Shown here piece by piece: positions 1-21,855 of a stretch of DNA of 32,000 nt. The stretch spans positions 750,083-782,082 of the forward strand of contig CAXXMV010000008.1 of the NCBI GenBank assembly GCA_963662285.2. The letters run 5' to 3'. The translations under genes were made by a program, and so were the position numbers. This stretch comes from a bacterium. GTDB taxonomy: Bacteria; Hinthialibacterota; Hinthialibacteria; Hinthialibacterales; Hinthialibacteraceae. A model generated the notes under the pieces. That model searched no databases. It saw only the letters and a list, made by a program, of their open reading frames with translations, and had not been told where the DNA came from. Position 1 is the stretch's first letter; every line of letters begins with the position of its first letter.

Positions 1-2971
1 ATTCACGTATAGCATAAGCGGAATGATAGGCTTCCTGAGCTTCATTCGTTTTACCTAATTCTATCAGTACATCTCCATATTGGATTAGGCCACGAGCATA
101 TCGATAATGCCATTGTTCATTTCCTCCATATATTTCTACACATTGCTTCTGAATGGCAAGAGCATTTTTATACACATTATCGATGTTTAATCGCAACGCC
201 TCAGATAAGTTTTTTTTCAGGAGTAGATCAGAATATTGAAAAAATATTGCTGAGAACTCAGATTTCCATTGGATATTATCCGGATCTTTTTCTATAAGGA
301 ATTTACATATCTCAATTGCGGTATCACATTCTTGAACAGCTTCATCGACATTATCTTGCGCTTCAAGCACCATACTTATTTTTCCGTGGATTATAGCCAG
401 AGTACGTTGCCATTCAGGATTGCCGGTATCTGTATTGGTTAAACGATCATGGATCGATTGGGCTTTACGATACGAATGCAATGCATCCGGTAAATTACCT
501 TGATCCATCAGCATCCCGCCAACCGTGATATGGCAGACTGACAGACCGTGTTGTTGGGAAAATTCACTAGAACCGCTCTCTATGATATTTTGCAAGATAT
601 CCCGTACGCACTGCATAAACCGTAAACGTAAAATTAATGGGGTATGGCTTTCTAGGGCATTTAAAAGAAATTCATGAAATTTCATGCAAATATTGATTCG
701 TTCGTACGGTTTTAATTGACTTTTATCCAATAGCGAAAGCACCCAGTCGAAACCAGGACCAAAATCCACTGTTTCCGAATCGGATTTTGGATTCGTTTCC
801 AACTGATTGCGAATGATATGCTCCGCCAAACTCCAGGTGGGACCCCAATGTTGATTTTTAGTAACCTCAAAAAGCAATCTCGCATAATATTTTGCCGCCA
901 TCAATTTAGCATCCGCACCAATGTAATGAAACATCAAGTTGCTGAATTGGATGAGATCGGTGGAATCCAAATCACTTAGATAATCGGCAATACCAAGATG
1001 AATACTTTTTTCTTTTTCAGTATCGCTTAGGTAACGGTGGTAAATTGCTTCCCGCATTTTTGTGTGAAAAAAATCCCATTGTCCCTGTTCGCCTTTTTGT
1101 ACAATATGAGATCGAAAAGTACGGCGTAAACTGGCAAAACGCAGATCATTCCATGGGCAATCGTCCGTAGAAATTTCTGGATACAATTGAGCCATAATGC
1201 GGGGCAAAAGAATGCGTATATCTTTTTCCCGCCACCCCTGACGGCTGACTGCGATCAGGTTCGCAAAACTTTCAGCCCATTCTTTGCCGTGGATTTCTTC
1301 CGCATGTTCTAACATAAAACCATACATGCCTTCCACATCGGGAGGAAAGGATTGGGTTGTATCGCACATCATGGCCAAAAGACGTTCTTCATCGGTTCCG
1401 GAATATTGTTGATGAGCACGTTTAAAATCATCCGCGTCGAGAAGATTCAACTCTTCAACAGCAAGTTCCAGCCACAGTGGAATTCCTAAAGATGGTTCGT
1501 CATCAGCATTTTGTTTGTCCAGTAAAATTTGTAAAACTTTTTGATTCAGGGTTCGATGGTATCGGGCGCATATTGTTTTTATTATGCTTTCCGCCTCATC
1601 TGTATTGAGCAATGACAATGGGAGCAAATCAATTCCTTTGCGCTGCTGCAAGGATTCCGATTCGGAACCAGGAATAGTGGTTGCAATAAGCCGCACATTG
1701 TCAGGAAGAATTCTTCGTAACCAAGTCATATACGAAGCGCGGGGAGAACGCTCGAATTGGTTTAGGGCATCGATGAGCAACACCACGCGGCGTTTTAACG
1801 AAGTCTGACCTAGAATTGTAAAAAACGTGTTTTCGATCTCCTCAGTCGAAAAACCTTGGCGTGTTTCTTGTTCTACTGGTCTTGATTCCAGATCATTCTG
1901 GTATTTTGTGCTGTGGGTATCTTTCTCTGCCAGAGGATTTTCGATTGAAAGGAATTGCGCCAATTCCTCCGTCCAGCGCAAGAGCATGGCATCAACTTGA
2001 CCGGCTTGCTGGCTAATGCCAGCAGCATGTGAAAGTAACAAGACATCTGATGATTCGAGCATACGATGCATATAGGCGAACAGGGCGCTTTTCCCTGAGC
2101 CTGTTCTTCCGGTGATACATATTCCCCATTTTTCATCTTTGAGTGCAATCGATGTGACATGTTTCATCAGGGTTTTGATGATATCGGCGCGTCCGATGAA
2201 GTCACGTCCGCGCTGTTCCACGAATGTATTCAGGATCGAACGTTCCTGTTCCTGCCAAGAGGAAACACTTTGATGGGCGAATTCCAACGTTTCTTCATTC
2301 AGTTCATTCCACAAGTCTTCAAGAACCTGGTTACCCAAGTCTTCAAGATTGTAAACTTGTATAGTTCCATCTGAATCGGATTTCCAATCAGCTCTGTAAG
2401 AACGAACACGGTCGGGCAATTCTTGTGTGATGCGTTCTTTAAGCGCTCTCAAGCGTTCGGCGCGTGCGGGTTCGCCGGCATGTTGTTCGCTGAAATGAGA
2501 AGATTGAGCTAGCGTCATCCGATCGTAGTCAAACGATTCTCTAAAATAAAAGAAACATCTCTTTTGCTGGCTAGGTGATTTCAATACGCCATATTCAATT
2601 TCAAGAGCCGTAACGCTTTTACCCTCCAAATCGCTTTCGAAACTGGCCTCTTGTGTGGCAGCCGCCATTCGTTCTTTTGGTGGAACCCATCCATAACGAT
2701 CACCGATGAGACCGATTAAAAACGGTCGGCTGCGCTGTATTTCATCAAGGCATACTTTAAGAACTAACATTTCCTTTTGGTGAGTTTCATCTATTGATAT
2801 GGTCTCAACTCCCCAACGCAAATCGATAGATTCTAGATGGTGACGTCTTTCACGTAGACGCTCTTCCAATTCAGGAAATACAACATTGCGTAAATAATCT
2901 CTTTCCGCTTGCATATCTATAAACGTACTTGTAATAAAAATTGGTCGTGTTTTCCAGTGAGCAGAAGTCAT
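1..2971 (-). CDS. DUF4062 (TIR-like) - STAND P-loop NTPase - TPR protein; C-terminus runs off the window start
   Basis: Missing from the ORF track because it is open to the window edge. My own minus-strand translation from the ATG at 2971 gives ~990 stop-free codons: MTSAHWKTRPIFITSTFIDMQAERDYL...IDLRWGV...CLDEIQRSRPFLIGLIGDRYGWVPP (DUF4062 signature), Walker A GRTGSGKS, Walker B VVLLIDALNQ, RLIATT, then TPR-like helical repeats to the edge. The small track ORFs at 1584-2374 are shadows inside it. Confidence 0.85.
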   Translation of the reverse strand, partial: MTSAHWKTRPIFITSTFIDMQAERDYLRNVVFPELEERLRERRHHLESIDLRWGVETISIDETHQKEMLVLKVCLDEIQRSRPFLIGLIGDRYGWVPPKERMAAATQEASFESDLEGKSVTALEIEYGVLKSPSQQKRCFFYFRESFDYDRMTLAQSSHFSEQHAGEPARAERLRALKERITQELPDRVRSYRADWKSDSDGTIQVYNLEDLGNQVLEDLWNELNEETLEFAHQSVSSWQEQERSILNTFVEQRGRDFIGRADIIKTLMKHVTSIALKDEKWGICITGRTGSGKSALFAYMHRMLESSDVLLLSHAAGISQQAGQVDAMLLRWTEELAQFLSIENPLAEKDTHSTKYQNDLESRPVEQETRQGFSTEEIENTFFTILGQTSLKRRVVLLIDALNQFERSPRASYMTWLRRILPDNVRLIATTIPGSESESLQQRKGIDLLPLSLLNTDEAESIIKTICARYHRTLNQKVLQILLDKQNADDEPSLGIPLWLELAVEELNLLDADDFKRAHQQYSGTDEERLLAMMCDTTQSFPPDVEGMYGFMLEHAEEIHGKEWAESFANLIAVSRQGWREKDIRILLPRIMAQLYPEISTDDCPWNDLRFASLRRTFRSHIVQKGEQGQWDFFHTKMREAIYHRYLSDTEKEKSIHLGIADYLSDLDSTDLIQFSNLMFHYIGADAKLMAAKYYARLLFEVTKNQHWGPTWSLAEHIIRNQLETNPKSDSETVDFGPGFDWVLSLLDKSQLKPYERINICMKFHEFLLNALESHTPLILRLRFMQCVRDILQNIIESGSSEFSQQHGLSVCHITVGGMLMDQGNLPDALHSYRKAQSIHDRLTNTDTGNPEWQRTLAIIHGKISMVLEAQDNVDEAVQECDTAIEICKFLIEKDPDNIQWKSEFSAIFFQYSDLLLKKNLSEALRLNIDNVYKNALAIQKQCVEIYGGNEQWHYRYARGLIQYGDVLIELGKTNEAQEAYHSAYAIRE

Positions 2972-3327
2972 TTTTGATATTATCCTTTACTCGAGTTACG
3001 CTAATAAATTGCATTCCAATAGAAAAAATTACATTCCTCTATGCGAAAGTGCATATTTTTCTCAAAGGTCAAAGAAAGTTGCTAACTCCTCCCGATCCCT
3101 GAAAAACGGATAAAGCCGTTTCGGGAATGTTGCGTCTCTAACTTACTTCCAACAAGCAGAATATTGATTCAGTACGTTTCCAAAAATCGTTGAAGTTTCT
3201 TGCCCCAATACGCATCTTTGTGACTGTAACTAATTAAATCTCAAGATATATGGTTATTTGTCAGCGTACCTTTTATGAGCATTTTCCTAAGCGGTGAAAA
3301 TTATATTTCAAGCTTATTAAGCAAACA

Positions 3328-5043
3328 CTACTTCACGATTTTCTTTCCTACTTTTTTCAGATAATCTGGAATATTCTTTACGGCATCCCGGTCATAGTCT
3401 TTTGTTTCTTCATCCAGGTCTTGCCACTCTTTCATATCTGGATGAGTTCGTTGTTTTATATCATTTGGCCCTTCAGTAAAATTTTCCAAGCGGTTAAAGG
3501 CAAGCCAGCGTTTGTGTTCCATTTCCGCAAGAATTTCTATATCTTCCTTAGAAAAATGATATTCTTCAACTTCGCTAGTTGCACATATGATTTGAAGACC
3601 AAGTGTGCGGAGTTTGATTCCAATGTGCAGCGCTTGAAGTCTGTTGGATTCGCGATAATACATATTTAACTGATTCCAGGATTTGTGAGACTCCGTCATC
3701 CCAAAGTCATTTTTTTTTGCTGCGGATTCTAAATAATTTTTATGAATGACTTTTGCCAGATGGTCTAGTTCATCTTCAACAATACATTGTAATGTTGCCG
3801 TTTCATTCAATGCACCAAAATAGTTAAAAGCCGCATCCCGAAATTCAGAGTTCATATAACAGGATTGATCAACATCGGCAGGAATTCTTACAAAGATGGG
3901 AATTTTATATTTTTTTAGTTGTTGAGAAATATTATGAGGATATAAGAATGACTTGCGCTTTTCATTGAAACAAAATACAGCGGATATTATCGCATTTTTA
4001 TTGTCCAGCCATTTCGTGAATTGTTTATCAAGGGTTTCCTTTTCAATGTCGGCATGAATAAATTCTATATCAGCCAGTGTATTGATTTGTGGATATTTTG
4101 CATATAATTCTTGCTTTCGGTTTTCCGAATCTAAATCGATAATAGATATTAATGTTTTTTGCTGATTTGCCATTTGATAGAGTTGAATGGCTTTAATAAC
4201 TAAAATTTCCCCCAAACATCCAAATCCTATAAGAATTAAATGGATAAAGTTATTGGAAGAAGGCATGATGGGGTTATAATCCAGCGGAGATTCATTTAAT
4301 AGTTTCCTAGCCATGATCTCATACAAGTTGATGATTTGAAACTCTAATCCTGAATGCGGATTCAAGAATAAGTCTTTATCTCGTAAAACAATACACATTT
4401 TTGAGTCAATTATATGAATATAGTTTCTAAGGATATTACATTTTTTTGATGCAACTGAATCTAACAAAGTCTGATGTACTTCATAAGCAAGTTCCATATT
4501 CTTAATATCTTCATCAAAAAAAGCAAATAAGTATGATGCTTTTTGAATACCTGCTTCAAGCAAAATAGAGTATTTTGTTGGTTCTGCTTGGATATGGTAC
4601 AAATCCTGATTGTTGAAATCATTTGAAACAATATCCAGACTAACATCAGCAAGCAGTACAACGTTTTTTTGCTTTTCTAACAAATCACAAATAAGATGTT
4701 TTGCCATTGGGGAATAGCCACAAACAATGTAGTGAGAATTAAAAAATCGAAGGATAAGTGATATATATTTTTTATAAAACAACGCGATGAATCCTAAAAC
4801 CAATGTAAATGAGGATGTAACGACTCCCAGCCATCGAGCCAATTCTACTTGCCATGTTTGAGGAAGATCATCATATTCAAGAATAAATAATTGAATAGTG
4901 CTGTAAAGACGATCCCAAAGACTCCATGCAGGATGTTCAAAGAAATAACCCCAAAGCCCCAAAAATATTGTCCAACAGATTAGACAGGACAAAATTGAAC
5001 CGCGATTGACTTCGATGTATTTGATACCTTTCAAAATATTCAT
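3328..5043 (-). CDS. Membrane protein: 2TM channel-like N-terminus, two Rossmann-like (TrkA-N/RCK-like) units, C-terminal RyR-domain module
   Basis: 571-aa ORF. Two hydrophobic helices (ILSCLICWTIFLGLWGYFF and WLGVVTSSFTLVLGFIALFY) flank LYSTIQLFILEYDD, a K-channel-like layout with no TVGYG filter. The first Rossmann unit is degenerate (IVCGYSPMA); the second has GxGxxG (LIGFGCLGE). The C-terminus carries a RyR signature: EMEHKRWLAFNRL...HPDMKEWQDLDEETKDYDRDAVKNIPDYLKKVG. An ATGA start/stop overlap links it to the upstream ORF. Confidence 0.8.
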   Translation of the reverse strand: MNILKGIKYIEVNRGSILSCLICWTIFLGLWGYFFEHPAWSLWDRLYSTIQLFILEYDDLPQTWQVELARWLGVVTSSFTLVLGFIALFYKKYISLILRFFNSHYIVCGYSPMAKHLICDLLEKQKNVVLLADVSLDIVSNDFNNQDLYHIQAEPTKYSILLEAGIQKASYLFAFFDEDIKNMELAYEVHQTLLDSVASKKCNILRNYIHIIDSKMCIVLRDKDLFLNPHSGLEFQIINLYEIMARKLLNESPLDYNPIMPSSNNFIHLILIGFGCLGEILVIKAIQLYQMANQQKTLISIIDLDSENRKQELYAKYPQINTLADIEFIHADIEKETLDKQFTKWLDNKNAIISAVFCFNEKRKSFLYPHNISQQLKKYKIPIFVRIPADVDQSCYMNSEFRDAAFNYFGALNETATLQCIVEDELDHLAKVIHKNYLESAAKKNDFGMTESHKSWNQLNMYYRESNRLQALHIGIKLRTLGLQIICATSEVEEYHFSKEDIEILAEMEHKRWLAFNRLENFTEGPNDIKQRTHPDMKEWQDLDEETKDYDRDAVKNIPDYLKKVGKKIVK

Positions 5044-6128
5044 AACTGTATCGACTTCGTTAGCTTTGGAATCATTTGATAATCTCTATCTTCAAAGGGT
5101 TTTTGAAATTCCAATAGCAATTCTTTCATTATGGGATGTATTGCGCATTGCTCCTTTACGTGGCAGTATTGGCAGGTAGTTTTTCCGGTAATTCCCAATT
5201 TCCCGACACCCGCCAACTCACCGGATCCCGAAGCTTTTATCACGGTTCCTTTCCCTTGAGGTGTTAACCAGTAAGCAAAATGACAATGCAGCGGCTCGAC
5301 TTCAGCCCAATCGCCTGCTTGTAGGGTTTTAACATTCCAAGTTAATGAGCCCCGCTGGTTCATTGGTTTAGACCAAATTTGCATTTCACCCGATAGAATC
5401 CCATAGATTTCAACAGCAGGAAGTCCGTGAACATGGACATCCTGTTTGTCTTTGGGCGAGAAAAAACTCCATGTAAATCCCAATCCTTGTTTTTGATAGG
5501 GTAAATAAGGATCGGCTACACGGAGATTAAAGGCTCGATTTCCTGCAGAAAGAATTTCATCTACGGTCTGGCTTTTAACAACTCGGACTCCGGTTTCTTG
5601 CAACGAAGCCCAATGACATGCCAATGCATCCATGGATGGAATTGTTGATGTTGTATCGATAACCTCAGAAAAATGACTTTGAACATAATTAGCTATCGTT
5701 CGGACATTTGGCTCTTTTGTATCTGCAAGAACTTCATTCAACAATTTCCAGGAAATAATATCTTTTTGCGTATTCAAGTTAGCCCAACCAGATTCAGTTA
5801 ATGAGATTGTCACTGGGTATAAATACCATTTTTTGTTTAGCCCCTCGTAGCGTGGACTATTATGATCGTTTAACAAAAGTGGCAATTCATCTTCTAAAAA
5901 GTAACTTCCTGGCTTCAGTCCAAGATCTTCCTTTAAGGGACGTACGAGTGCTTTATAAAGCGATTCCCCCTGACGTAACTTTGTTGAGGGAAATGTTGGA
6001 TGTCCTTGTTTTTCTATTAGCAGAAATTGTACAGGGTCATGAGAAGATAATTTTCTGCAAATCAAACAATATAATACATACGAAATGGACATATCTCTGA
6101 CATTTTCTCGATTTGATTTTTCACACAT
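5040..6128 (-). CDS. Degenerate Nudix-fold domain fused to a cupin-like domain and a C-terminal Cys/His cluster
   Basis: 362-aa ORF. It has a Nudix-like box, FPSTKLRQGESLYKALVRPLKEDLGL, where canonical RE is RP and EE is ED. Cupin-like motifs are HVHGLPAVEIYGILSG and GDWAEVEPLHCH. CQYCHVKEQCAIH lies near the C-terminus. The 4-nt ATGA overlap with the 3328-5043 ORF implies an operon. Confidence 0.65.
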   Translation of the reverse strand: MCEKSNRENVRDMSISYVLYCLICRKLSSHDPVQFLLIEKQGHPTFPSTKLRQGESLYKALVRPLKEDLGLKPGSYFLEDELPLLLNDHNSPRYEGLNKKWYLYPVTISLTESGWANLNTQKDIISWKLLNEVLADTKEPNVRTIANYVQSHFSEVIDTTSTIPSMDALACHWASLQETGVRVVKSQTVDEILSAGNRAFNLRVADPYLPYQKQGLGFTWSFFSPKDKQDVHVHGLPAVEIYGILSGEMQIWSKPMNQRGSLTWNVKTLQAGDWAEVEPLHCHFAYWLTPQGKGTVIKASGSGELAGVGKLGITGKTTCQYCHVKEQCAIHPIMKELLLEFQKPFEDRDYQMIPKLTKSIQL

Positions 6129-6396
6129 ATAGAATACCTATTTGGGCAAGTATTTCCTGGTTCAACGTGAACTGGAGAATCACTCGTTCTGAGTTAGCAC
6201 TTCTTTGTATAATAGTTTGAGTTTTTTAGGCAAGGGGAAACTATCAATCCAATGAATATCTTTTAATGGGAGGCGTAGAAGGAGTGGCCTTCCACACCCC
6301 ACTCATCGTCTTGATGAGTTCCATCCGGCTATCCCTGGCGAGTTGCGCTCCCACAGAGCCCGCGTCCGTTTCACCGGATGCTATCATCTTCTTACA

Positions 6397-6822
6397 TCAC
6401 GTCAGCCGTGTCAAGAGTTTGCACGGCCTGCAGGTTGGCCTTTCTCCTTCCCGCGCTGCGTGAAGTTTACGATCCCATTCAGCGAAGATCGTGGGTCCGC
6501 GTCCGTCAGAGTTCCTTAAGACTTTTTTTACCTGAATGTGCTTCTCCATGAGTTCATCGAGTACTTCGTTCTTGCGTTTGAGTTTTTTTCCCAGCGCTGC
6601 GATTTTTCTCTCAGCGGTGGCAGACACGTCACTTGGGTTGGATTAGAAGGCGGCGGCTCCATTTTCAAAGAATTGCTTCTGTCAGCGGTAGAACATGGAC
6701 GGTTGCAGCCCATACGTCTCACAGTTATCCGATACCTCCTGCCTGTCCACCAAATGGCGCTTCAAAATCCCGACTTTTCCCTGCGGGGTGCAATGCTTGA
6801 GTTTCTTTATGATCTCCTCCAT
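6397..6822 (-). pseudogene. IS3-family-like transposase OrfA remnant with two in-frame stops; the DDE OrfB is missing
   Basis: Minus-strand reading from the ATG at 6822: MEEIIKKLKHCTPQGKVGILKRHLVDRQEVSDNCETYGLQPSMFYR*QKQFFENGAAAF*SNPSDVSATAERKIAALGKKLKRKNEVLDELMEKHIQVKKVL. This is an HTH plus leucine-zipper OrfA layout. There is a TGA at 6682-6684 (where Trp is expected in FYRWQK) and a TAA at 6643-6645. An A7 run (gtaaaaaaagtc) at the zipper end resembles an IS3 slippery site. No integrase-core ORF follows. Confidence 0.55.
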
Positions 6823-7012
6823 TCGAATATGCTATGCTAACTCAAATGAAGTATTTCTCCATTTCCGTTTGAAACGGAGCACGGGAAGGAAGATTGACAT
6901 GTCACTACTTTGTATGATAAAATCAGGTGTGATATATTTCAGAATAATTCTGGATTAAATGGAAAATCTTGGACATATTGACTAATTTTTTATATCAATT
7001 ATAGAGGAATCC

Positions 7013-10000
7013 ATGCTTCATTGCCCTAAATGCCATTCTTCAGATTTGACATTTCGTAAAAAGAAAAACGTCTATATTTGCGATAACTGCGATCATGAGT
7101 TTCATACGAAACAATCATTTACCGCAAAGCGGATTTTTATCAGTTACGGACATGATGAACATGCCGCGTTGGCAGAAAAACTCAAAAACGATCTTGAAAA
7201 GCGTGGACAACTTGTTTGGTTCGATCGCAACCGGATTCCGCTGGGGCCGGATTGGGAGCTCAGCATCGAACAAGGTCTGGCTTGGTTGAGAGAGAACAGG
7301 GAAAACAGTCTCTTTATCATCATCATGACACCCCACTCCGTGCGGCGACCGGATGCTTATTGTCTAAATGAAATAGCTTATGCGGTTTCTAAAAAATTCG
7401 ACATTTTACCGATCATGCTGGTATATTGCGAACCGCCACTGTCGATCCTTCGCTATCAATATCTAGATATGCAGGATTGTCTTCCAATCGATATTCACGC
7501 AACACGCTATGAGAAGCATTTTGAACGACTGTGCCAAGCGATCGAGCAGAACCATCGTGATTTTGAGGGTAATCAAGCATATTTCATGAAGTATCTTGAT
7601 CCATTTTCGCTCTCATTCAACGCTCAAGTATTATCGAAATTGCCGAATTTTGTGGGACGAGGGTGGGTGATAGAAGCAATCGACCGCTGGCTCAGCGATC
7701 CTGAAGGTTCAAAAGTGTTTTGGATCAGCGGCAAGGCGGGCATCGGAAAATCATCGTTGTCGGTTTGGCTTGTTGAGAATCGCCCGGAAATCGCCGCCTT
7801 TCACATGTGCGAGTATCGCAACAACAATAAATCCGATCCCAAAATATGTCTGCTGTTTCTAGTTTATCAACTCACCCAAGAACTGCCTGATTACCAGGAG
7901 AAACTATTACAGCGCGACATTTCCAAAGACGTGCTGGAAAGCGACGCTTCGACGTTGTTTGATTCGCTAGTGGTTGAGCCGCTTTCGATGATCAAAGCGC
8001 CTGAACACAACTTCGTGATTTTGATCGATGCGTTGGATGAAGCATCGCAAGGTCGTGTTAACGACCTGGCCGAATTCATCGCCAACGACTTCAAGAAGAC
8101 GCCTTCCTGGCTACGCCTCATTGTCACCAGCCGACCAGAGACGAATATCCAGACGTATTTTCAATCCATAGATCCCTTTGATTTGGACAAGGCCAAAGAT
8201 CAGAACGAAAACGACATCAAAACCTACTTACAAACTGCCTTGAAGCCGTTTTATCCCGATCAACCCATTTCTTCCGGCGTCTTGCAGACCATCGTCGAAA
8301 AAAGCGAGATGGTTTTCACCTACGTTCAACAAATCATCCAAGAATTGCACGCAGGCCGACTGTCGTTGGATCGGTTAGATGAATTTCCCCGCGGATTGGG
8401 CGAATACTTTTTTACATGGTTTAAGCGACAATTTCCCGAAGCCGACAAACGCAAGCATGACAGCCAGGGGACCGTAGAGATATACAAAAAGCAATGTCTC
8501 CCCTTGTTGGAACTCCTGGCTGTCGCCCAAGAGCCATTAGCCTTGAATACCATTAAATCGATTTTGAACTGGGGCGATTATGGCGATGACATCATTAACT
8601 TTTTCGGTTCATTGCTCATCAAGGATGAGACGGTTCATCCCTTTCACAGTTCGCTGATGGATTGGTTGGAAGATTCACAACGGTCGTATCCCTATACCAT
8701 CCGCGCCATCGCCGGGCATCGCCGTATGATGGAGTATGGTTGGGGAGTGTATGAAGACAATGTCCAAACCCTTCCTGTGTATTTTTTAAGGCGCCTTCCT
8801 CTTCATCTAATGGCTTTGGAGGAATGGGATCGTATCCGACAGTTTCTTTGTGAACCGCATATTCTCTCTCATTGGTCGAGGGATAAGCAGCAATATGAAT
8901 TGCTCGCGCTGTGGCGGCAAATTGGCGAGGCCCTGGACATGGTCGCTCTATATATGGAGGCGACTGTACATCTGGGGGCATCGGATTTTTCACCTCGGCG
9001 AAAGCAGCAGATTTTACGTTCGATCGCTTCGTTTTTGGCTTTGAACGGTCACTATTCGTCGGCGGAAACTCTTCTTCGACAAGCGTTAGCGATTCTGATG
9101 GAATTAGAGGAAGCGTCTTTGATCGATGTAACCGAATGCAAGGAGGATTTAGCGCGAGTTTATACACATCAATACAAGCAGGCCCCGGCGCTTCGTTTAT
9201 TTAAGGAAGTGGAAAAAGCATATGAAAGCGAATTGGGCTTGGATCACTCTGATATGGCAGATTTATTCACCCATATGTCGGATTTGTATTATCAGCAATG
9301 CCGATTCACTGAGGCAGCGCATTATTGCCGTCAGGCTCTTAATATCCATAAGAAACATTTTCACTTCAATCACTCTCTTCTCGCTGATTCGCAGCATGCC
9401 TTGGCGAATATCAATCGCTCTCAAGGGTGTGGTGAAGAAGCGGAATCGCTCTATTTGAGATGTCTGAACATTCACCACGAAAACTTGGGAGATGATCATA
9501 TCAAGGTCGCCGACGTGTTGCACGATTTGGCGATTCTCTACTTTCAACAAAATAACATTACGCAAGCGGAATACCATTTCAAACGCGCATTCGAGATTCG
9601 CAACCGTTTTTTGGGGGCGTCTCACCCTCAAATCGCGGATACATTGAGCGCGTTGGCGGACGTCATGGTCTCCAAAGGTGACCTTACGGGCGCCGAACGG
9701 TATTATCAAGACGCCTTACAGATGCTGGAGACGTCATTCGGCAAAGAAAGCGTAAAGCGGGCGGACGTTATGGAGCGATTCGCCGAGCTCTATATACGTC
9801 AGGATCGCTTTGAACCGGCGATGCGGCTGCTCGATGAAACTCTCTCCATTCGAAATAAGTATTTGGGTCCCATTCAGTTCGACACCATGCGCGCACGGCG
9901 TAAGAGAACACAATTACAGCTACGTTATGAAGGACTGGATAAAAGAAGTGCGTTTGCTAATCGAAATGAGTTCCTTGATATCGAAAGCAGACTGGCTGAA

Positions 10001-11638
10001 ACGTACGGTCAGGCAATCTATGATGCATTTGTAGAGAAAAAAAGTCCGGAACCGGGCGATTTACTGCCGCCCCAAACCGCCGTACAGTTACAAAATGATC
10101 TTGCCCTACTTAGGGATGTGATAGAAATACGCTTGTATGCGGATGTTCTTTCCTACACCATGGTTCAATACCGCATTTGTGAGCTCAGTGGAGATTGGGG
10201 CGATGTGGGAAAAGACCGCGCCGATTTTAATTTGATGCAAGTACTGCTTTCTCTTCCGCCCGATGAAGAGATCCAATTTCACCACTATTCACTATATGCA
10301 GAGGCGCGAGAGGAATTGATGGGAACGCTGCATCTTGATCGCTTGAATAAAGAATCGATCGATGCGTTGAAAAAAAAGATGGAATGGTTCGAGTTAAAGA
10401 TATTAAACAAAAAATTCAATCTGAAATCGAAGGAGATTAATCGAATTCTCGCATGGTTGAAATCCAATCATCGATTGACAAACTCATCGGAATGCTTGTT
10501 ATGGGGAAGAGCAGATTGCTTCGGTATGCAAAACAACACAATATCCATCTACCACCATGAGGAGATGCGTTCACCTTTGCTGGCCAATTATTGCGTATCA
10601 TTTTCGAAAGATACGGAAATCATCTTACGTGAAGAAGGGATCAACTATGTGATGTATATCAAATGGGCGAGTGTATTTAATGGTTCGGCGTTTGCGCCGA
10701 CGGCTAAGGAACAAATCTCGGATCGTCTAAAACAATGCGCGCTGGAGGCCTGCCGAATCGGAACGCGACGGGATTTTGAACTGCAGAAAGATTTTTTCAT
10801 CAGCGCCATGATGGAAAATATTTTTTATTATGAATTAACCGACAAATCACTCAATGAGGTGGTTGGAAGTATATCCGTTGGAATGCAATCTGGATTAAGG
10901 AACTTCCACAATAAAAATTTCCTGGCGCACGTGAATTGTCTTACATGCGAATGGCATCCGCTTGTCGATGGCAAAGTCAGCCCCATCGGCAATATTTTAG
11001 ACACAGCTATCGAGAAGAGCGATTACAACCGCGCCTTGCAACTTCTATATATCTATCTCAGCGACGGCTGGTTTCTAGACACCGACATCTCTTTTATGTA
11101 TCCCTATACTCATATTCTGTACCTTCTTATTCTTCCTTATCTGAAAGAGCCTTTGTATGTCGACTTTGAAATGATGCAAAAGGATTTGCCGACACTGTTT
11201 GATTTTATGATAAGTGAATATAAGCGAATGCTCGAACATTTGCATAATTTCCTTCTTAAACGAAGTTATATTGATGAGGGAAAAGAATGCCATTTTGAGA
11301 ATATCAAAGATAAGATTCTCTGCTTCCAAACACTTTATGAAACGTTGGGTACACATTTCGACACGGAATGGGTGAAATCAATTAATTTTTGGAGAAATTT
11401 TTTCAGCAGAGTTCTTCGAGAAGATCCCTTGTTTCATCAGGCATTGACGATTCAGATCCAAGAATATCAAATGGATTTCTATGCCAAATTGTTGAGTCGT
11501 TTTCATGGCCAAAAGCAATACGATCCCAGCCCGGCTGGTGTTGAGAATTATATCATCGAACAAATGACGGATCGAGGGTACTCCATTCGAGATAAGCAGA
11601 TGATCTATCTACCTTTATCCGAACTTGGACTCGATTGA
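7013..11638 (+). CDS. Zn-ribbon - TIR - NACHT-type STAND NTPase - TPR protein with a ~540-aa unassigned C-terminal region
   Basis: 1541-aa ORF with a GAGG SD 5 nt upstream. It starts with a CPKC...CDNC zinc ribbon. The TIR domain reads RIFISYGHDE...LFIIIMTPHS...AYCLNEIAYA, with a putative catalytic Glu120 (nt 7370-7372). Walker A is GKAGIGKS (7730-7753), Walker B is FVILIDALDEA, followed by LRLIVTSRPE. Kinesin-light-chain-type TPRs cover about residues 660-955. I recognise no motif beyond about residue 1000. Confidence 0.9.
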   Translation: MLHCPKCHSSDLTFRKKKNVYICDNCDHEFHTKQSFTAKRIFISYGHDEHAALAEKLKNDLEKRGQLVWFDRNRIPLGPDWELSIEQGLAWLRENRENSLFIIIMTPHSVRRPDAYCLNEIAYAVSKKFDILPIMLVYCEPPLSILRYQYLDMQDCLPIDIHATRYEKHFERLCQAIEQNHRDFEGNQAYFMKYLDPFSLSFNAQVLSKLPNFVGRGWVIEAIDRWLSDPEGSKVFWISGKAGIGKSSLSVWLVENRPEIAAFHMCEYRNNNKSDPKICLLFLVYQLTQELPDYQEKLLQRDISKDVLESDASTLFDSLVVEPLSMIKAPEHNFVILIDALDEASQGRVNDLAEFIANDFKKTPSWLRLIVTSRPETNIQTYFQSIDPFDLDKAKDQNENDIKTYLQTALKPFYPDQPISSGVLQTIVEKSEMVFTYVQQIIQELHAGRLSLDRLDEFPRGLGEYFFTWFKRQFPEADKRKHDSQGTVEIYKKQCLPLLELLAVAQEPLALNTIKSILNWGDYGDDIINFFGSLLIKDETVHPFHSSLMDWLEDSQRSYPYTIRAIAGHRRMMEYGWGVYEDNVQTLPVYFLRRLPLHLMALEEWDRIRQFLCEPHILSHWSRDKQQYELLALWRQIGEALDMVALYMEATVHLGASDFSPRRKQQILRSIASFLALNGHYSSAETLLRQALAILMELEEASLIDVTECKEDLARVYTHQYKQAPALRLFKEVEKAYESELGLDHSDMADLFTHMSDLYYQQCRFTEAAHYCRQALNIHKKHFHFNHSLLADSQHALANINRSQGCGEEAESLYLRCLNIHHENLGDDHIKVADVLHDLAILYFQQNNITQAEYHFKRAFEIRNRFLGASHPQIADTLSALADVMVSKGDLTGAERYYQDALQMLETSFGKESVKRADVMERFAELYIRQDRFEPAMRLLDETLSIRNKYLGPIQFDTMRARRKRTQLQLRYEGLDKRSAFANRNEFLDIESRLAETYGQAIYDAFVEKKSPEPGDLLPPQTAVQLQNDLALLRDVIEIRLYADVLSYTMVQYRICELSGDWGDVGKDRADFNLMQVLLSLPPDEEIQFHHYSLYAEAREELMGTLHLDRLNKESIDALKKKMEWFELKILNKKFNLKSKEINRILAWLKSNHRLTNSSECLLWGRADCFGMQNNTISIYHHEEMRSPLLANYCVSFSKDTEIILREEGINYVMYIKWASVFNGSAFAPTAKEQISDRLKQCALEACRIGTRRDFELQKDFFISAMMENIFYYELTDKSLNEVVGSISVGMQSGLRNFHNKNFLAHVNCLTCEWHPLVDGKVSPIGNILDTAIEKSDYNRALQLLYIYLSDGWFLDTDISFMYPYTHILYLLILPYLKEPLYVDFEMMQKDLPTLFDFMISEYKRMLEHLHNFLLKRSYIDEGKECHFENIKDKILCFQTLYETLGTHFDTEWVKSINFWRNFFSRVLREDPLFHQALTIQIQEYQMDFYAKLLSRFHGQKQYDPSPAGVENYIIEQMTDRGYSIRDKQMIYLPLSELGLD

Positions 11639-11716
11639 AACAGGACGAAACTACTGGAACTGTTGAGCAGTACAGACGACGCGTTCTTGACAAACAGAGC
11701 ATTAATCGAGGTTTTT

Positions 11717-14700
11717 ATGCTAATCGATTTTCTGACTTATCAACGAGAGACCCAAAAGCAACCGGCTCCGTCTAAGCCACTCGATTGGACTTGCGGGGAA
11801 TTGCTTTGTGATGTCAGCTATCTTCAATACACGGGGCCGTCGGAATGGGAGTGCACTGGTTTATTCGGCTCTTCACATACATGCAAAGATATACACCGGA
11901 ATCGCCGTTTTCTCTGCTTGGTTCCACGGGAAGAAATCTATCGCAAAGGTTGGGTGCGTAAGCGATTTGCGTTTGAGTACAAACGGCTTCTCACCGCCTC
12001 TCCCTCCCCCTTTCTGATGATTCCCGTAGGATGGATCGAAAGGGTTGATTATGTCATGTGCATCTTGGAATGGAATGACAGGGTTCCGCTGCAAACCTTG
12101 TTAGAATCATCACAATCGGCGCCATCCTCTTCTCCACTTCCCTTTGCCGATCCCCAAGTGCGAGCGCGCGATGCACTCGAATTGTTTTTCCAAGTCGCCA
12201 CGGGAATGAAACAGTTGCATGACAAAACAGGGTTGATTCATCACAATCTTCATCCCGGAACCCTCTTTTGGAGTCAAGAGCGTCAGGCGTTTCAAATCAG
12301 CGGTTTTCTACTTTCGCATAGTCTGTATTGGACTCGGGAGGATGAACCTGAGTTTGAAACGACATTTCCGGACAACAATGTATCTTCAGAAGATAGTATC
12401 TGCGCATTTCAATTTCCCGAATCCGTCCGTCCCTATCTTCCTCCAGATGTTCTCGATAATCCCCTGCATGCGGAACCCTGCGACGATATATATTCTCTCG
12501 GCATGATCGTATATCAAATTCTGCATAATTTTAACGATGAAGTCGTCAAGCGGTTTCCAACGGATGGTTTTGAAACGCCCGAGTGTGGAAGTGATGGGCT
12601 TCTTACCTTACTGCGCCGATGCCTGGCGACGCAGAGGGATGATCGATGCATTTCGTGGGACGCTCTTCTCGACGATGTACGTAATATGTTGTCTGAAAAT
12701 AAGAGTCGATCCCTGCAAAAACCCCAACTCATTCTTTCATGCGACGACTGTGTGAATCTATCCTGGGCGCACATCGACATGAGTAAATACAGTCGCGCCG
12801 GGGAATGGGCCAACCAAGCCCTCGACATCGAGTCGAATAATTCTTTCGCTCAAATAGCCAAGATGATCACTCTTGGGAAAATCGGTCGCTTGGATGAAGC
12901 CTTTGAAATTGGATCATCCTTACTTCGTAGAGAGCCGGAAAACGCCGAAGCGCATAATTATATGGGTTATTTGTATTACCAAAAAGGAGATTTCAAAACC
13001 AGTCTTGAACATTTTGAATCCAGTTTGCGTTACGATTCCAACCTAGCCTGCAACTATAACAACCTCACTGTACTCTATCTTGTTCACGAACGCCTGAAAG
13101 AAGCGCGGGACTGCTTGATGCGGGGCTTGGAACGCTTTCCCTTCGATCCCGATCTATTGGTTTCATGGGTTAGTGTATCCGAATCGCTAGGAGACCTCCC
13201 GAGCGCATTGGCCCATCTCGAAGAAAAACTCGCGGACGATTGGGATGGCTCCATTCACAATGCGTATGGTATGGTGCTGGAAAAAAAAGGCCGCCTCGAT
13301 GACGGAATAATCCGGCTAGAGGCCTTTCTTTCGACCAGGCCGAGCGCCCATCTCGCTTGGAACCGGTTGGGAATTCTTTCAGAAAACGCCGGACATTTGG
13401 AAAAAAGTCTGGAAAGTTTTCAAAAGGCCATCCGTCTCAAACCACATGACGAAAACTATGTGGGCAATTGCCTACGGATTTTAAACTCATTGGGTTGTTT
13501 GTCTGAGGGAATTCAACTTGGAGAACAATGGTTGTCCTGTTATTATCCCGCAATGTCTGTTAGCAGCCTATTGGGAGTGCTATTGACTAATGCGGATGAG
13601 ATAGAACGCGCGGTAGAGCCTCTTCAGAACGCTCAACGCATTGCCCCTTGCGATGAGACATTGGCGGGCAATCTGGTTCACAGTCTGCGCATTGCCGACC
13701 AGGTAAATCAAGCCATTGAATTCGGCGCCGAATGGTCAGTAACTCATAAAGGTGGATCGTATTTTTGGAATCAATTGGGGAACGCCTATTTTGGCTTGGA
13801 GCGTTTTGCCGAAGCAATTCCCTGTTATCAGAAAGCTCTGGAATTCGAACCGGATGATGCAGAAATCGCATCCAATTTATTAAATGCCTATTTTAAAATA
13901 AACGATTTTTCCGCTTGTATGCAATTCGCCGAAGCATGGCTTGCAGACCATCAGGGCAACGAGAATTTTCATACTTACTTAAGCATCTCCTTCATCAACA
14001 CGAATCAGATGGAAAAAGCCATCTCTACCTTAAAAACCGCTATCAGCAAGCAGCCTGAATTAGCAAATTCACTGAAAGAAGTGATTGCCAAATTAACTCA
14101 GAGTGGGCAGGAACAACGGGCGATTGAATTCGGCGAACTCTGGCTCCTACACAATCCTCCGACGCTGGATGTTTTGAATCAAATCGGAATCGTCCATTAC
14201 GAAAACAAACGCTTTGAAGAGGCGACCGCCTGTTTTCGAAACGCACTCGAACTGGAACCAAGTAATAAAACTGTCGCATTGAATATAATGAATTCCTACG
14301 ATAACTTGAATCAGTATCAGCGGTGCATCGAATTTGGAGAAAATTGGCTCCAACACAATCCTCCGACGCTGGATGTTTTGAATCTTATCGGAATCGTCCA
14401 TTACAAAAACAAACGCTTTGAAGAAGCGACCGCCTGTTTCCAAAACGCGCTCGAACTGGAACCAAGTAATAAAACTGTCGCATTGAATATAATGAATTCC
14501 TACGATAACTTGAATCAGTATCAGCGGTGCATCGAATTTGGAGAAAATTGGCTCCAACACAATCCTCCGACGCTGGATGTTTTGAATCTTATCGGAATCG
14601 TCCATTACAAAAACAAACGCTTTGAAGAAGCGACCGCCTGTTTCCAAAACGCGCTCGAACTGGAACCAAGTAATAAAACTGTCGCATTGAATATAATGAA

Positions 14701-15760
14701 TTCCTACGATAACTTGAATCAGTATCAGCGGTGCATCGAATTTGGAGAAGATTGGCTTAATCGGCACTCGCCAGATGATACAATATTCGGACATCTTGTC
14801 GATGCGTACACTCATTTAGGAAAGTATGATAAAGCAGAACAAGCGTTAGTAAAAGCACCGAAAGAATATCAATATTTGAGATGTATACTAAACGCTTACT
14901 ATCAATCCAAACAATTTGACAAAGCCATCGATTGTGCAGAACAATGGAAAGATCAATACAATCTTGAGCCGGAGTTATGGAATTCCTTGGGACAAATCCA
15001 TTATGATAAAAAACAATATTCGGAAGCCTTAGAATGCTATGAAGAAGCATCGCGATTGTCCCCTGAAAATCTAGATTACCTTAATAACTCTGCTTTGGCC
15101 TTGTCCTCATTAAAAAAACACGATGAAGCGATTGCCCGAATGGGCTATGTACTTGAGCAACAGCCTAGTACTTTACTTTATGCACAAAATTACTTTACAT
15201 GCCTTAAAGACGCCAACCACAAAGAAAAAGCTGTTGAATTTGCGAAAGGGTGGATGGAAGCAAATACTGTGGATGAAATTTTATTGAATTCTGTAGGACT
15301 AACGTTAGATGATTTAAAGAAAGATAAAGATGCAATTGAATGCTACCAGAAGGCTCACGAACTGAATCCTCAAAATGCCGGGTATTTAAATAATATGGGA
15401 ATGAGTTTCAAAGCACTCGGCCAATTCGATCAAGCCATTACTTTAACGAAGCAAGCCATAGAACTGGAGCCGAAAAATATTGTTATTATTGTGAATCATC
15501 TTATCTGTTTGAAAAGTGCAGACCGTCTGGATGAAGCGATCCAAATCGGCAATGCTTGGATTCAAGAACATGGCGAAAAACCAATAGTTTTAAATCAATT
15601 GGCGTTGATTCACGAACAAAAATTTGATTTTGAAAATGCGCTGGTCTGTTATGATTCCACACAAGAGAAAGAGAAATACCTTGCCGCATTAATAGATTAC
15701 GGCCGGTATGAAGCCCTGAATCAAGCCTTGGAATGGTATGACTGGATGGAGACGGCGTGA
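11717..15760 (+). CDS. Protein-kinase-fold domain (predicted pseudokinase) fused to a long TPR array
   Basis: The track ORF starts at a TTG at 11663. I prefer the ATG at 11717, preceded by GAGG plus a 5-nt spacer. Kinase-fold landmarks are LELFFQVATGMKQLHDKTGLIHHNLHPGTLFW (HRD-loop equivalent), FQISGFLLSH (DFG equivalent), PYLPPDVL and DIYSLGMIVYQIL (subdomain IX). TPR repeats run from about residue 370 to the end. Confidence 0.85.
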   Translation: MLIDFLTYQRETQKQPAPSKPLDWTCGELLCDVSYLQYTGPSEWECTGLFGSSHTCKDIHRNRRFLCLVPREEIYRKGWVRKRFAFEYKRLLTASPSPFLMIPVGWIERVDYVMCILEWNDRVPLQTLLESSQSAPSSSPLPFADPQVRARDALELFFQVATGMKQLHDKTGLIHHNLHPGTLFWSQERQAFQISGFLLSHSLYWTREDEPEFETTFPDNNVSSEDSICAFQFPESVRPYLPPDVLDNPLHAEPCDDIYSLGMIVYQILHNFNDEVVKRFPTDGFETPECGSDGLLTLLRRCLATQRDDRCISWDALLDDVRNMLSENKSRSLQKPQLILSCDDCVNLSWAHIDMSKYSRAGEWANQALDIESNNSFAQIAKMITLGKIGRLDEAFEIGSSLLRREPENAEAHNYMGYLYYQKGDFKTSLEHFESSLRYDSNLACNYNNLTVLYLVHERLKEARDCLMRGLERFPFDPDLLVSWVSVSESLGDLPSALAHLEEKLADDWDGSIHNAYGMVLEKKGRLDDGIIRLEAFLSTRPSAHLAWNRLGILSENAGHLEKSLESFQKAIRLKPHDENYVGNCLRILNSLGCLSEGIQLGEQWLSCYYPAMSVSSLLGVLLTNADEIERAVEPLQNAQRIAPCDETLAGNLVHSLRIADQVNQAIEFGAEWSVTHKGGSYFWNQLGNAYFGLERFAEAIPCYQKALEFEPDDAEIASNLLNAYFKINDFSACMQFAEAWLADHQGNENFHTYLSISFINTNQMEKAISTLKTAISKQPELANSLKEVIAKLTQSGQEQRAIEFGELWLLHNPPTLDVLNQIGIVHYENKRFEEATACFRNALELEPSNKTVALNIMNSYDNLNQYQRCIEFGENWLQHNPPTLDVLNLIGIVHYKNKRFEEATACFQNALELEPSNKTVALNIMNSYDNLNQYQRCIEFGENWLQHNPPTLDVLNLIGIVHYKNKRFEEATACFQNALELEPSNKTVALNIMNSYDNLNQYQRCIEFGEDWLNRHSPDDTIFGHLVDAYTHLGKYDKAEQALVKAPKEYQYLRCILNAYYQSKQFDKAIDCAEQWKDQYNLEPELWNSLGQIHYDKKQYSEALECYEEASRLSPENLDYLNNSALALSSLKKHDEAIARMGYVLEQQPSTLLYAQNYFTCLKDANHKEKAVEFAKGWMEANTVDEILLNSVGLTLDDLKKDKDAIECYQKAHELNPQNAGYLNNMGMSFKALGQFDQAITLTKQAIELEPKNIVIIVNHLICLKSADRLDEAIQIGNAWIQEHGEKPIVLNQLALIHEQKFDFENALVCYDSTQEKEKYLAALIDYGRYEALNQALEWYDWMETA
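14120..14760 (+). repeat. In-frame 204-bp (68-aa, two-TPR) tandem repeat, ~3.1 copies
   Basis: Copies start at 14120, 14324, 14528 and 14732 (partial). Read base by base, 14324-14527 and 14528-14731 are identical. Perfect 204-bp periodicity holds over 14246-14749. Copy 1 has scattered substitutions (by eye roughly 90 percent identical). Confidence 0.95.
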
Positions 15761-15826
15761 TGAAAATCAAATTTGTTGGAGAGGAAGGTTTAGAATCGAA
15801 ATTCTTTTTAAGGATCTTCAGAAAAC

Positions 15827-18304: not shown

Positions 18305-18710
18305 ACCTTGGGCGTCACCCATTCCAACGGCACGAGTCATCATCGTCAATGAAGAGGGCGCTGTATTGCTATTGAAACGTGGTGAGGGCGACTATGGTGC
18401 CGGTCTGTGGTGCTTACCCGGTGGGAAGGTGGATTATGGAGAATGCCTCAAGGAGGCGGCCCGTCGTGAACTGCATGAAGAAACATCGATCCACCCAGAC
18501 CATCTACGTTTTTTATTCTATCAGGATGGATTACCCAAATTTGATCAGGATATGCATTGCATCGAACTTTTTTTTCAATGCGTATACTCCGGTCCCGTCT
18601 CCGTCAATTGCGAATCCATCGATTTTGCCTGGGTTAAAGAGAAAGGAATACAAGATTATCCTATGGCTTTCAATCACGACCGAGCATTGAGCCGATATTG
18701 GGAAACATGA
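18279..18710 (+). CDS. Nudix hydrolase (small, single domain, near-canonical Nudix box)
   Basis: 143-aa ORF. The Nudix box GGKVDYGECLKEAARRELHEETSI (18420-18491) fits GX5EX7REUXEEXGU except for the final G, which is S. The start overlaps the upstream RSH gene by 26 nt. Confidence 0.85.
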   Translation: MKCIVKPSEPWASPIPTARVIIVNEEGAVLLLKRGEGDYGAGLWCLPGGKVDYGECLKEAARRELHEETSIHPDHLRFLFYQDGLPKFDQDMHCIELFFQCVYSGPVSVNCESIDFAWVKEKGIQDYPMAFNHDRALSRYWET

Positions 18711-21115: not shown

Positions 21116-21138
21116 TCACAAGACAAAGGAGCATCGAC

Positions 21139-21537: not shown

Positions 21538-21542
21538 GAGGA

Positions 21543-21770: not shown

Positions 21771-21855
21771 TTCCGTACTGGATGGCCTTCGGTGAGGTAA
21801 TCGCTTCGCCGGAGCCGATGCGAAACAGAATTCTGATCGATCATGGAATAGACAG

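Follow-up and report, generated by a model that had tools for sequence, protein, structure and literature searches.

TRPM2 is an ADP-ribose (ADPR)-controlled cation channel that operates through a SLOG domain (MHR1-2) and a catalytically eroded Nudix domain (NUDT9-H), and both of these sensors have relatives in bacterial conflict systems. In the defense system Thoeris, a TIR protein (ThsB) is found beside an effector (ThsA) with a small-molecule sensor. GsuK is a K+ channel with two transmembrane helices (2TM) and two RCK domains per subunit, of which NAD/ADP-bound structures are available (4gx2 and 4gx1). More recently, gp68 of phage vB_PatP_CB1, named RyR Tad, was described as a domain resembling Repeat12 of the ryanodine receptor (RyR) that sponges glycocyclic ADPR (gcADPR) made by TIR proteins, and mammalian Repeat12 was described as an ATP and drug site (bioRxiv 10.64898/2026.06.04.730250, a preprint of June 2026). 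Here we describe two adjacent genes, referred to as A and B, in a 32,000-nucleotide stretch of DNA (the window; contig CAXXMV010000008.1, positions 750,083 to 782,082 of the forward strand, GenBank assembly GCA_963662285.2) from a bacterium of the Hinthialibacteraceae. Gene B encodes a predicted channel that ends in a tandem RyR module, and gene A encodes a Nudix-like protein with a cupin-like barrel and four conserved cysteines (Cys4). The interesting unit is the RyR module, which is common to interchangeable effectors in TIR/STAND neighborhoods and has the Nudix-cupin-Cys4 protein as a frequent companion. Both families, A and B, are repeatedly found next to TIR genes in widely separated bacteria, a pattern suggestive of a branch of nucleotide-signaled defense that has yet to be described.

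The RyR Pfam family (PF02026) matches B at residues 501 to 569 (E 1.6e-6; 28.7 bits, above the gathering score of 27.4), and bacterial as well as mammalian RyR-repeat structures were recovered among its matches in the Protein Data Bank (PDB), for example, 6uhi (E 5e-8) and the bacterial 3nrt (E 7e-4). The C-terminal ~145 residues of B align end to end with the C terminus of the RelA/SpoT protein encoded in the window (32% identity, E 1e-23), and this one C-terminal double RyR module was found behind three different heads: a channel, a RelA/SpoT domain, and an AAA ATPase. RyR Tad binds 1''-3' gcADPR (Kd, 43 nM), 1''-2' gcADPR, and cyclic ADPR (cADPR), with contacts at H129/W132, K147/H154, and K170/D171 (bioRxiv 10.64898/2026.06.04.730250). 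In an alignment with gp68, B retains five of these six contacts (H510, W513, H534, K548, and D549). Across 32 members of the B family, the first His is found in all 32 and the Trp in 29, while the position of K170 is K/R in 28 and that of D171 is E/D in 23. From the phage RyR Tad-gcADPR structure and these conserved contact residues, we infer that the RyR module of B binds a ligand and, by analogy, may be the receiver of an ADPR-type signal.

The remainder of B resembles an RCK-gated channel. In its AlphaFold2 (AF2) model (predicted local distance difference test score [pLDDT], 88.9; predicted template modeling score [pTM], 0.84), helices at residues 14 to 36, 42 to 51, and 64 to 88 are followed by two Rossmann/RCK domains and a helical C-terminal domain. 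The best Foldseek matches of this model in the PDB are GsuK (E 2e-9), the TrkA gating ring, Slo1/BK, MthK, and CASTOR/DMI1, and the model points to B as a structural relative of RCK-gated channels. At the sequence level, Pfam places TrkA_N at residues 105 to 190 (E 1.6e-7, above the gathering score), and the RCK domain of Kch is among the PDB sequence matches. RCK2 has an intact GxGxxG motif (GFGCLG) with an acidic residue, D303, at the end of β2, while the glycine motif of RCK1 is degenerate in B (GYSPMA) and intact in most relatives (CGLGRKG). The TVGYG K+ filter is absent from both B and the family consensus in our motif table. The pore loop of the family instead has the consensus LY.TLQLF.LESGA, with LFILEYDD in B itself. 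Its TLESGA recalls TLESW, which is the filter of bacterial NaV channels, and on these motifs it is plausible that B forms a cation pore that is not K+ selective.

Several of these features had been proposed in a first-pass annotation of the window, which was made from the letters and translated reading frames alone. Its RyR module, its Rossmann unit with an intact dinucleotide-binding motif, and the TIR/STAND genes that it placed next to the pair are all present, and the structure predictions and Foldseek searches that it called for recovered the Nudix fold of A as well as the 2TM and Rossmann parts of B. Its description of a 2TM layout without a selectivity filter holds for the two helices and for the missing TVGYG, and the family has kept a pore-loop motif of its own (TLESGA). 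The idea of a pore devoid of any filter-like motif was thus rejected on the basis of this conserved consensus. Likewise, B is not the orphan that a word-indexed search with two matches had made it seem. An exhaustive phmmer search returned 5978 cluster representatives at an E value of ≤1e-3 and 873 at ≤1e-30, and the best 150 relatives are mostly aligned over the full length, mostly ~570 to 620 amino acids (aa) long, and 24 to 32% identical to B. A word-indexed search with the B-family alignment added no further relatives, and PADLOC has no model for B.

We surveyed the neighborhoods of both families, with neighbor genes defined by our own open reading frame (ORF) calling, clustering, and local hidden Markov models. 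Loci of the A family came from a genome scan with an A-family alignment (26 loci from at least six phyla; 23 A-family loci in the pair count), and those of the B family came from a metagenome scan with a B-family alignment (80 loci) plus exact look-ups (73 B-family loci counted). Pfam was run on every ORF of at least 110 aa within two genes on either side, that is, on 63 proteins from 22 loci for A and 125 proteins for B. TIR_2 was the commonest Pfam family around both A (10/63) and B (13/125), and RyR ranked second around A (5/63). At 11 of the 23 loci, A has a TIR gene no more than two genes away, and the TIR proteins beside B homologues are often at position +1 on the same strand. Forty-nine B-family loci have a flank of ≥3 kb, and 29 of these have a TIR gene, a DUF4062-STAND gene, an SLOG-like gene, or a further RyR protein. 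The recurrent partner of B is the DUF4062-STAND-TPR protein, which is found at +1 on the same strand in three further loci (L093, L109, and L113), as in the window, and at +2 in L038. Other B neighbors include AAA-RyR proteins, a fused NUDIX-RelA_SpoT-RyR protein (L110), a 179-aa RyR-only protein, and a ~200-aa SLOG/YAcAr-like protein.

On the A side, an RyR-tagged protein adjoins A or lies one gene off in the window and in L006, L014, L015, L018, L023, and L024. Two kinds of such proteins were seen. Proteins with the order RelA_SpoT-TPR-LSDAT_prok(SLOG)-RyR occur in L006, L012, L018, and L023, with an orthologue in the window, and in the proteins of L014, L015, and L024, a MoxR-like AAA ATPase stands between an undefined N-terminal region and RyR. 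The notion that the partner of A is always a RelA/SpoT protein was rejected, as three members of the "RelA" cluster are AAA-RyR proteins. Judged by domain composition, the combination of A with an RyR-tagged effector is conserved, and B is the channel-headed form of this effector. The LSDAT_prok family ("SLOG in TRPM, prokaryote") was matched above its gathering score (E 7e-7) between the TPRs and RyR in L006:5290-7911 and L023:8468-11101; the window copy aligns in this region, yet without an LSDAT_prok Pfam match. A comparison by hhalign of the middle region of the RelA/SpoT-RyR proteins with the ~200-aa SLOG-like neighbors of B was negative.

The surveyed loci also contained several arrangements that are of note in themselves. 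The LSDAT_prok-RyR proteins of L006 and L023 unite in one chain relatives of the modules with which the animal Ca2+ channels TRPM and RyR sense nucleotides. In a metagenomic locus with a B homologue (L110:3772-6819), NUDIX, RelA_SpoT, and RyR are fused in one protein of 1015 aa. Three loci (L040, L066, and L100) have a one-strand trio of a channel-RCK-RyR protein, a 916- to 945-aa AAA/STAND-like ATPase-RyR protein, and a ~200-aa SLOG-like protein, and L102 has the first two of these genes before its sequence ends. With no TIR gene in the available flank, the trio of L040, L066, and L100 looks like a separate RyR-centered system. The 179-aa protein, which consists of tandem RyR repeats only, follows a B homologue and precedes a ~206-aa SLOG/YAcAr-like protein in L029:9778-10317 and also occurs in L048 and L079; possibly it buffers the signal or is the cell's own equivalent of the RyR Tad sponge of the phage. 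Finally, in two Desulfobacterales loci (L003:825-2939 and L007:5772-7916), the gene between those of a 355-aa TIR protein and an A homologue encodes a protein of 704 to 714 aa with a phosphofructokinase (PFK) domain (E 1.4e-45), and a PFK-type kinase was unexpected in a TIR neighborhood.

The first-pass annotation had viewed A and B as a dedicated pair and had itself made their conservation as neighbors the test of this view. An A-family gene was found at none of the 73 B-family loci, and a B-family gene was found at 1 of the 23 A-family loci, which is the window itself; the dedicated two-gene system is therefore refuted. The overlap that it had described is exact: the stop codon TGA of A and the start codon ATG of B share the four nucleotides ATGA (...CAGTT ATGA ATATT). 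This overlap argues that A and B form one transcript in this genome, in which case the channel would be coexpressed with its putative ligand handler. A promoter and terminator scan of positions 2700 to 7100 gave signals no better than those of shuffled sequence. In tblastn searches, neither A nor B matched phage records and A did not match plasmids, and the matches of B to plasmids were distant ones on a Sinorhizobium megaplasmid (~21% identity) with uninformative context. Our literature search on RyR together with RelA/SpoT, Nudix, or TrkA in bacteria gave no description of the A family, the B family, or RyR-tagged effectors, which Burroughs et al. 2015 (NAR) may still mention.

The fold of the N-terminal half of A is that of a Nudix protein, and its catalytic box is eroded. 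The Pfam match to NUDIX is weak (E 1.4e-3; 19.1 bits against a gathering cutoff of 21.1); however, an AF2 model built from 26 homologues (mean pLDDT, 78.7; pTM, 0.73) had only Nudix folds among its top 50 Foldseek matches in the PDB. The best match was RppH (6vck, E 1.5e-7) and the second best was NrtR (3gz5, E 2.7e-7), with diadenosine tetraphosphate (Ap4A) hydrolases also among the best, and structural matches in BFVD were likewise mostly Nudix. In an alignment with MutT, the box of A differs from the catalytic Nudix box GX5EX7REUXEEXGU by G to T, RE to RP, and EE to ED. In the alignment of 43 A-family members that was used for all conservation counts, this erosion is family-wide: Gly is replaced by Thr in 43/43 and E57 by Asp in 43/43, and the position of MutT E53 is Glu in 0/43 (P, I, T, S, or V instead). 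Retained box residues are R52 (43/43) and E44 (41/43). Because the box is degenerate throughout the family, the Nudix half of A looks like a binding rather than a hydrolytic module. The likeness to NrtR that had been suggested at first pass is thus apt for the eroded box, which is a family trait and fits binding, and it fails for the remainder of the protein: no helix-turn-helix or winged helix-turn-helix family was found in A with Pfam and NCBIfam, and its C-terminal half is a β-barrel with a Cys cluster. Three A-family members have an extra, canonical Nudix domain at the C terminus.

In this C-terminal half, the AF2 model has eight β-strands at residues 217 to 300, and the pattern HxH(x5)E(x6)G ... 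G(x8)HCH is present. Cupins are defined by a double-stranded β-helix with two motifs, HxH..E..G and G..P.G..H. H232, H234, E240, and H283 are invariant (43/43), as are G247 and G272. A lenient Pfam search with C-terminal fragments gave a subthreshold Cupin_2 match in one homologue (E 0.009), and several homologues carry the Joint Genome Institute (JGI) label "mannose-6-phosphate isomerase-like (cupin)"; our assignment to the cupins is tentative. The model is low in confidence at residues 303 to 317. C282, C319, C322, and C328 are invariant (43/43) and H331 is not. Because the His/Glu and Cys residues are invariant while the Nudix box is eroded, conservation places the constrained chemistry of the A family, as judged from its alignment, in the putative C-terminal metal-type sites.

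The A family comprises more than 334 clusters, and its top 120 members are 52 to 62% identical to A over the full length, across phyla. Besides the window, the 22 loci belong to Desulfobacterota, Bacteroidales, Planctomycetota, Verrucomicrobiota, Lentisphaerota, and Gaiellaceae, and all 26 loci of the genome scan are from uncultured or anaerobic lineages. A paralogue of A (P0110; 368 aa, 54% identical) is encoded elsewhere on the same contig. None of the PADLOC models is for A (one weak match, 0.01), and the family is without a Pfam model for its conserved C-terminal half and without a characterized member in the libraries searched. The putative metal site of the family, being invariant, hints at a chemistry on ADPR-type signals that is as yet unexplored.

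TABLE 1 Features of the two genes and of the surrounding island in the window
Feature	Coordinates	Strand	Evidence and remarks
DUF4062-STAND(NACHT-like)-TPR gene	1..2971	minus	Pfam; directly downstream of B, runs off the left end of the window
Gene B	3328..5043	minus	ORF, 571 aa; 2TM pore, RCK1, RCK2, and tandem RyR repeats
Tandem RyR repeats of B, residues ~425-571; putative adenine-nucleotide/ADPR-type ligand sensor	3331..3771	minus	Pfam, PDB
Tandem RCK/Rossmann domains of B: RCK1, ~103-250; RCK2, ~264-420	3784..4737	minus	Pfam, motif table, Foldseek
Pore module of B: TM1 (16-35) and TM2 (64-88), with a short helix and loop between them (42-63, RLYSTIQLFILEYDD)	4780..4998	minus	Hydropathy and AF2
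Gene A	5040..6128	minus	ORF, 362 aa; Nudix-like, cupin-like, and Cys4
Cys cluster of A, C319-x2-C322-x5-C328 with C282 beside the cupin His; candidate Zn or Fe-S site	5133..5174	minus	Invariance
Cupin-like β-barrel of A, putative metal site H232/H234/E240/H283	5229..5480	minus	AF2 strands and invariance
Degenerate Nudix box of A, residues 49-71, T..E.......RPLKEDLGL	5916..5984	minus	Alignment to MutT
Zn-ribbon-TIR-NACHT-TPR gene, divergent from A; candidate sensor and signal generator	7013..11638	plus	TIR_2 (E 3e-15), NPHP3_N/NACHT, TPR; PADLOC TIR models
Protein-kinase-like and TPR gene	11663..15760	plus	Pkinase (E 4.4e-6; 26.7 bits against a gathering score of 31.7); many TPRs
RelA_SpoT-TPR-(SLOG/LSDAT-like)-RyR gene	15827..18304	plus	RelA_SpoT (E 1.5e-15), RyR (E 3.2e-14); PADLOC PDC-S33
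Small canonical Nudix hydrolase	18279..18710	plus	NUDIX (E 3.4e-21); PADLOC PDC-S07
IS21-family IstB	19423..20241		E 4e-76
Probable IstA remnant	20207..21115		No Pfam match
Tyrosine integrase	22041..23090		

The genes around A and B are listed in Table 1. The RelA_SpoT-TPR-RyR gene lies 9.7 kb from A, is of the same type as the usual neighbor of the A family, and overlaps the small Nudix gene by 26 nucleotides. A CxxC...CxxC zinc ribbon precedes the TIR domain (7013..7100), with a weak match to the PhnA Zn ribbon (E 1.6e-3). The PADLOC models PDC-S33 and PDC-S07 that match the RelA part and the small Nudix protein stand for candidate defense systems. The kinase-like protein has PADLOC matches to the kinase regions of MkoA, mad6, and PglW, which are defense kinases, and within its gene a 204-bp unit is present three times (14141..14757; 97% identity), an in-frame triplication of a 68-aa TPR block. 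This triplication is very recent, and such a change in repeat number is as expected of a fast-evolving sensor array. The IS21 element and the integrase (19423..23090) likely mark the border of a mobile or variable island, and the genes to the right of the integrase are ordinary ones (oxidoreductase, AraC, MarR, and ABC transporter).

In light of these data, we tentatively propose, giving it slightly less than an even chance, that A and B belong, as two of its modules, to a composite TIR/STAND nucleotide-signaling defense island (1..18710), in which the RyR repeats receive the signal, B is the channel effector, and A handles the signal. Starting from the observed architectures, conserved residues, and gene associations, we infer the following biochemical steps. 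The STAND NTPases at both ends of the pair would sense an invader by their TPR arrays and oligomerize, and the TIR domain would then, on the model of Thoeris and TIR-STAND systems, use NAD+ to make a signal derived from ADPR. This signal would be received by the tandem RyR module, which is shared by channel B and the RelA/SpoT protein. Ligand on the RyR repeats of B, possibly together with a dinucleotide in RCK2, would set a tandem-RCK gating ring of the GsuK type in motion. B might thereby open a cation pore that is not K+ selective, with its acidic LEYDD loop, and depolarize the cell, leading to abortive infection or dormancy, and the RelA/SpoT enzyme would be switched in parallel. A would serve both the TIR genes and the RyR-tagged effectors as an accessory. 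With its eroded Nudix domain it would bind the nucleoside-diphosphate moiety of the signal, and with its putative HxH..E..H and Cys4 metal center it would modify or destroy the signal, either for maturation or as a reset against self-activation in the host. The small canonical Nudix protein would perform ordinary hydrolysis. The first-pass annotation had seen in A and B a nucleotide-responsive membrane effector with a partner that binds or processes the ligand; the defense and nucleotide context, with TIR the commonest neighbor of both families, and the channel architecture agree with this, and the pair as a unit does not.

Several observations weigh against this proposal. At 7 of the 23 A loci there is no TIR, STAND, or RyR neighbor in the available flank, and ~40% of the adequately flanked B-family loci are without defense-type neighbors, because of which a housekeeping role is possible for part of the B family. 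The TIR enrichment of both families is a matter of raw neighbor counts, leaning on the general rarity of TIR genes and not on a genome-wide background. The gene contexts are heterogeneous. In addition, A and B adjoin solely in the window, the ATGA overlap being the one sign of coupling specific to the two. Within the RyR module, the K147 contact is an Asn in B and the H154 position is variable in the family, and the ligand could be a plain adenine nucleotide, because the mammalian RyR repeat binds ATP. As to A, the cupin of the first-pass annotation has in its favor the β-rich stretch and the invariant His/Glu residues, and it comes without a significant profile match: Pfam found no cupin above threshold in 26 A-family members, a profile of the C-terminal half against PDB sequences gave insignificant paraoxonase matches only, and hhalign to a Cupin_2 protein was negative.

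An unlikely alternative is that the signal is made by the RelA/SpoT enzyme instead. An alarmone-type nucleotide, (p)ppApp or (p)ppGpp, would be sensed by the RyR and RCK domains of B, and the small Nudix protein and A would hydrolyze or buffer it, similar to the small alarmone hydrolase antitoxins of toxSAS systems. The RelA domain in the window does resemble small alarmone synthetases (2be3, "GTP pyrophosphokinase," and YjbM), and a RelA_SpoT-RyR gene adjoins A directly at two loci (L006 and L023), with a single small Nudix gene in between at a third (L018). The Nudix domain is linked to the RelA/SpoT enzyme by the gene fusion beside the B homologue in L110, which ties Nudix chemistry to the RelA/SpoT product, and an ATP-binding RyR repeat in mammals (bioRxiv 10.64898/2026.06.04.730250) would suit such a ligand. 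However, a RelA/SpoT gene is present at only 1 or 2 of the 73 B-family loci, compared with a TIR gene at 16, and A is also found beside AAA-RyR and plain TIR proteins without RelA/SpoT. Furthermore, RyR on the RelA/SpoT protein is more simply taken as an input (regulatory) domain.

It is more improbable still that A and B are neighbors by chance, B being a cation channel with a housekeeping role, whose gating follows the adenine or pyridine nucleotide status of the cell, and A a metabolic enzyme of sugar nucleotides or ADPR, both of which landed in a variable island. The uniqueness of the pair to the window and the ~40% of B-family loci mentioned above would be in keeping with this, as would the names "NAD-binding protein" and "voltage-gated potassium channel Kch" that annotation pipelines give to B-family members and the 52 to 62% identity of A across phyla, which is more like that of a metabolic enzyme than that of a fast-evolving defense protein. 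Chance does not, however, account readily for TIR_2 as the top neighbor family of both A and B at independent, phylogenetically scattered loci or for RyR as the second family around A, and the 4-nucleotide overlap argues for cotranscription in an island that is bordered by IS21 and an integrase.

The RyR repeats might also be protein-protein adaptors that pair homotypically to unite the channel, RelA/SpoT, and AAA ATPase effectors, with A an unrelated coresident enzyme: several RyR-tagged proteins per locus were found at 16 of the 49 adequately flanked B-family loci and in the window, RyR-only proteins of 179 aa follow B homologues, RyR Tad dimerizes via its RyR-like domain (bioRxiv 10.64898/2026.06.04.730250), and the logic would be that of the effector-associated (Death-like) domains of NTP-dependent conflict systems (eLife 2020, PMC7159879), a paper without mention of RyR. 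We consider this the least probable of the alternatives, as conservation within the module is highest at the ligand contacts (H, W, K/R, and D/E), something for which a pure adaptor would have no obvious need, and as RyR is missing from the STAND proteins of the window, leaving the presumed hub without a matching domain.

Returning to RyR as a receiver of TIR-made signals, a broader reading can be formulated, of which we are doubtful although we deem it less remote than the alternatives above. RyR repeats would be a widespread, unrecognized class of bacterial second-messenger receptors, comparable to CARF, SAVED, and the SLOG domain of ThsA, that read TIR-made ADPR-type signals and so link TIR/STAND sensors with interchangeable effector heads, which may include a GsuK-like cation channel, a RelA/SpoT nucleotide pyrophosphokinase, and a MoxR-like AAA ATPase. 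The Nudix-cupin-Cys4 protein would be a metalloenzyme dedicated to the maturation or clearance of the signal, RyR Tad would be a host receptor stolen by the phage, and Repeat12 of the animal RyR would descend from an immune sensor, a case parallel to the SLOG and degenerate Nudix sensors of TRPM2. If true, RyR would be new among the sensor domains of Thoeris-like immunity, three or more new types of effector would be added, a ligand-gated cation channel among them, and the carriage of an RyR-like sponge by a phage would be explained. The poorly understood nucleotide site of Repeat12 in the animal ryanodine receptor would likewise be given a bacterial origin and a testable ligand class.

Among described proteins, B is similar in layout to the RCK-gated K+ channels GsuK, MthK, and Slo: each subunit has a 2TM pore that includes a pore helix and, behind it, two RCK (TrkA_N) domains. 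In contrast to these channels, which have the TVGYG filter, B has an LEYDD loop (TLESGA in the family), and it adds a C-terminal tandem RyR domain and occurs in TIR/STAND-rich neighborhoods. This RyR domain has the same RyR-repeat fold as phage RyR Tad and animal Repeat12, with the motif EHxRW ... HP ... KDYDR. RyR Tad is a small soluble phage sponge that defeats Thoeris, whereas the module of B is fused to a cellular effector head and, by analogy, would be a receiver. A resembles NrtR in its Nudix fold with an eroded box, which in NrtR binds ADPR, but NrtR continues into a C-terminal, DNA-binding winged helix and A into a cupin-like barrel and Cys4 cluster. NUDT9-H is also a Nudix domain of the noncatalytic type, from which A again differs in its partner domain.

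At the level of the island, the parts of TRPM2 have counterparts in a channel (B), an eroded Nudix protein (A), and the TRPM-type SLOG domain LSDAT_prok, which is found in orthologues of the RelA/SpoT protein of the island. In the island, however, these parts are separate proteins and the pore is 2TM-RCK and not a 6TM TRP pore, and the comparison of the two assemblies gave no sign of common descent. Thoeris shares with the island a TIR protein beside an effector with a small-molecule sensor, and its effector head (SIR2 or TM) is variable, with a membrane-effector version among its forms. It differs in its sensor, which is SLOG or Macro and here putatively RyR, and the island has extra Nudix-type accessory genes; in addition, the TIR domain around the A and B families is often part of a large STAND-TPR/WD40 protein. 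No PADLOC ThsA model matches A or B, although TIR neighbors are present. In function, Thoeris is the nearest analogue of the island, which falls outside Thoeris itself because its putative sensor, RyR, is neither SLOG nor Macro and because a ThsA match is missing.

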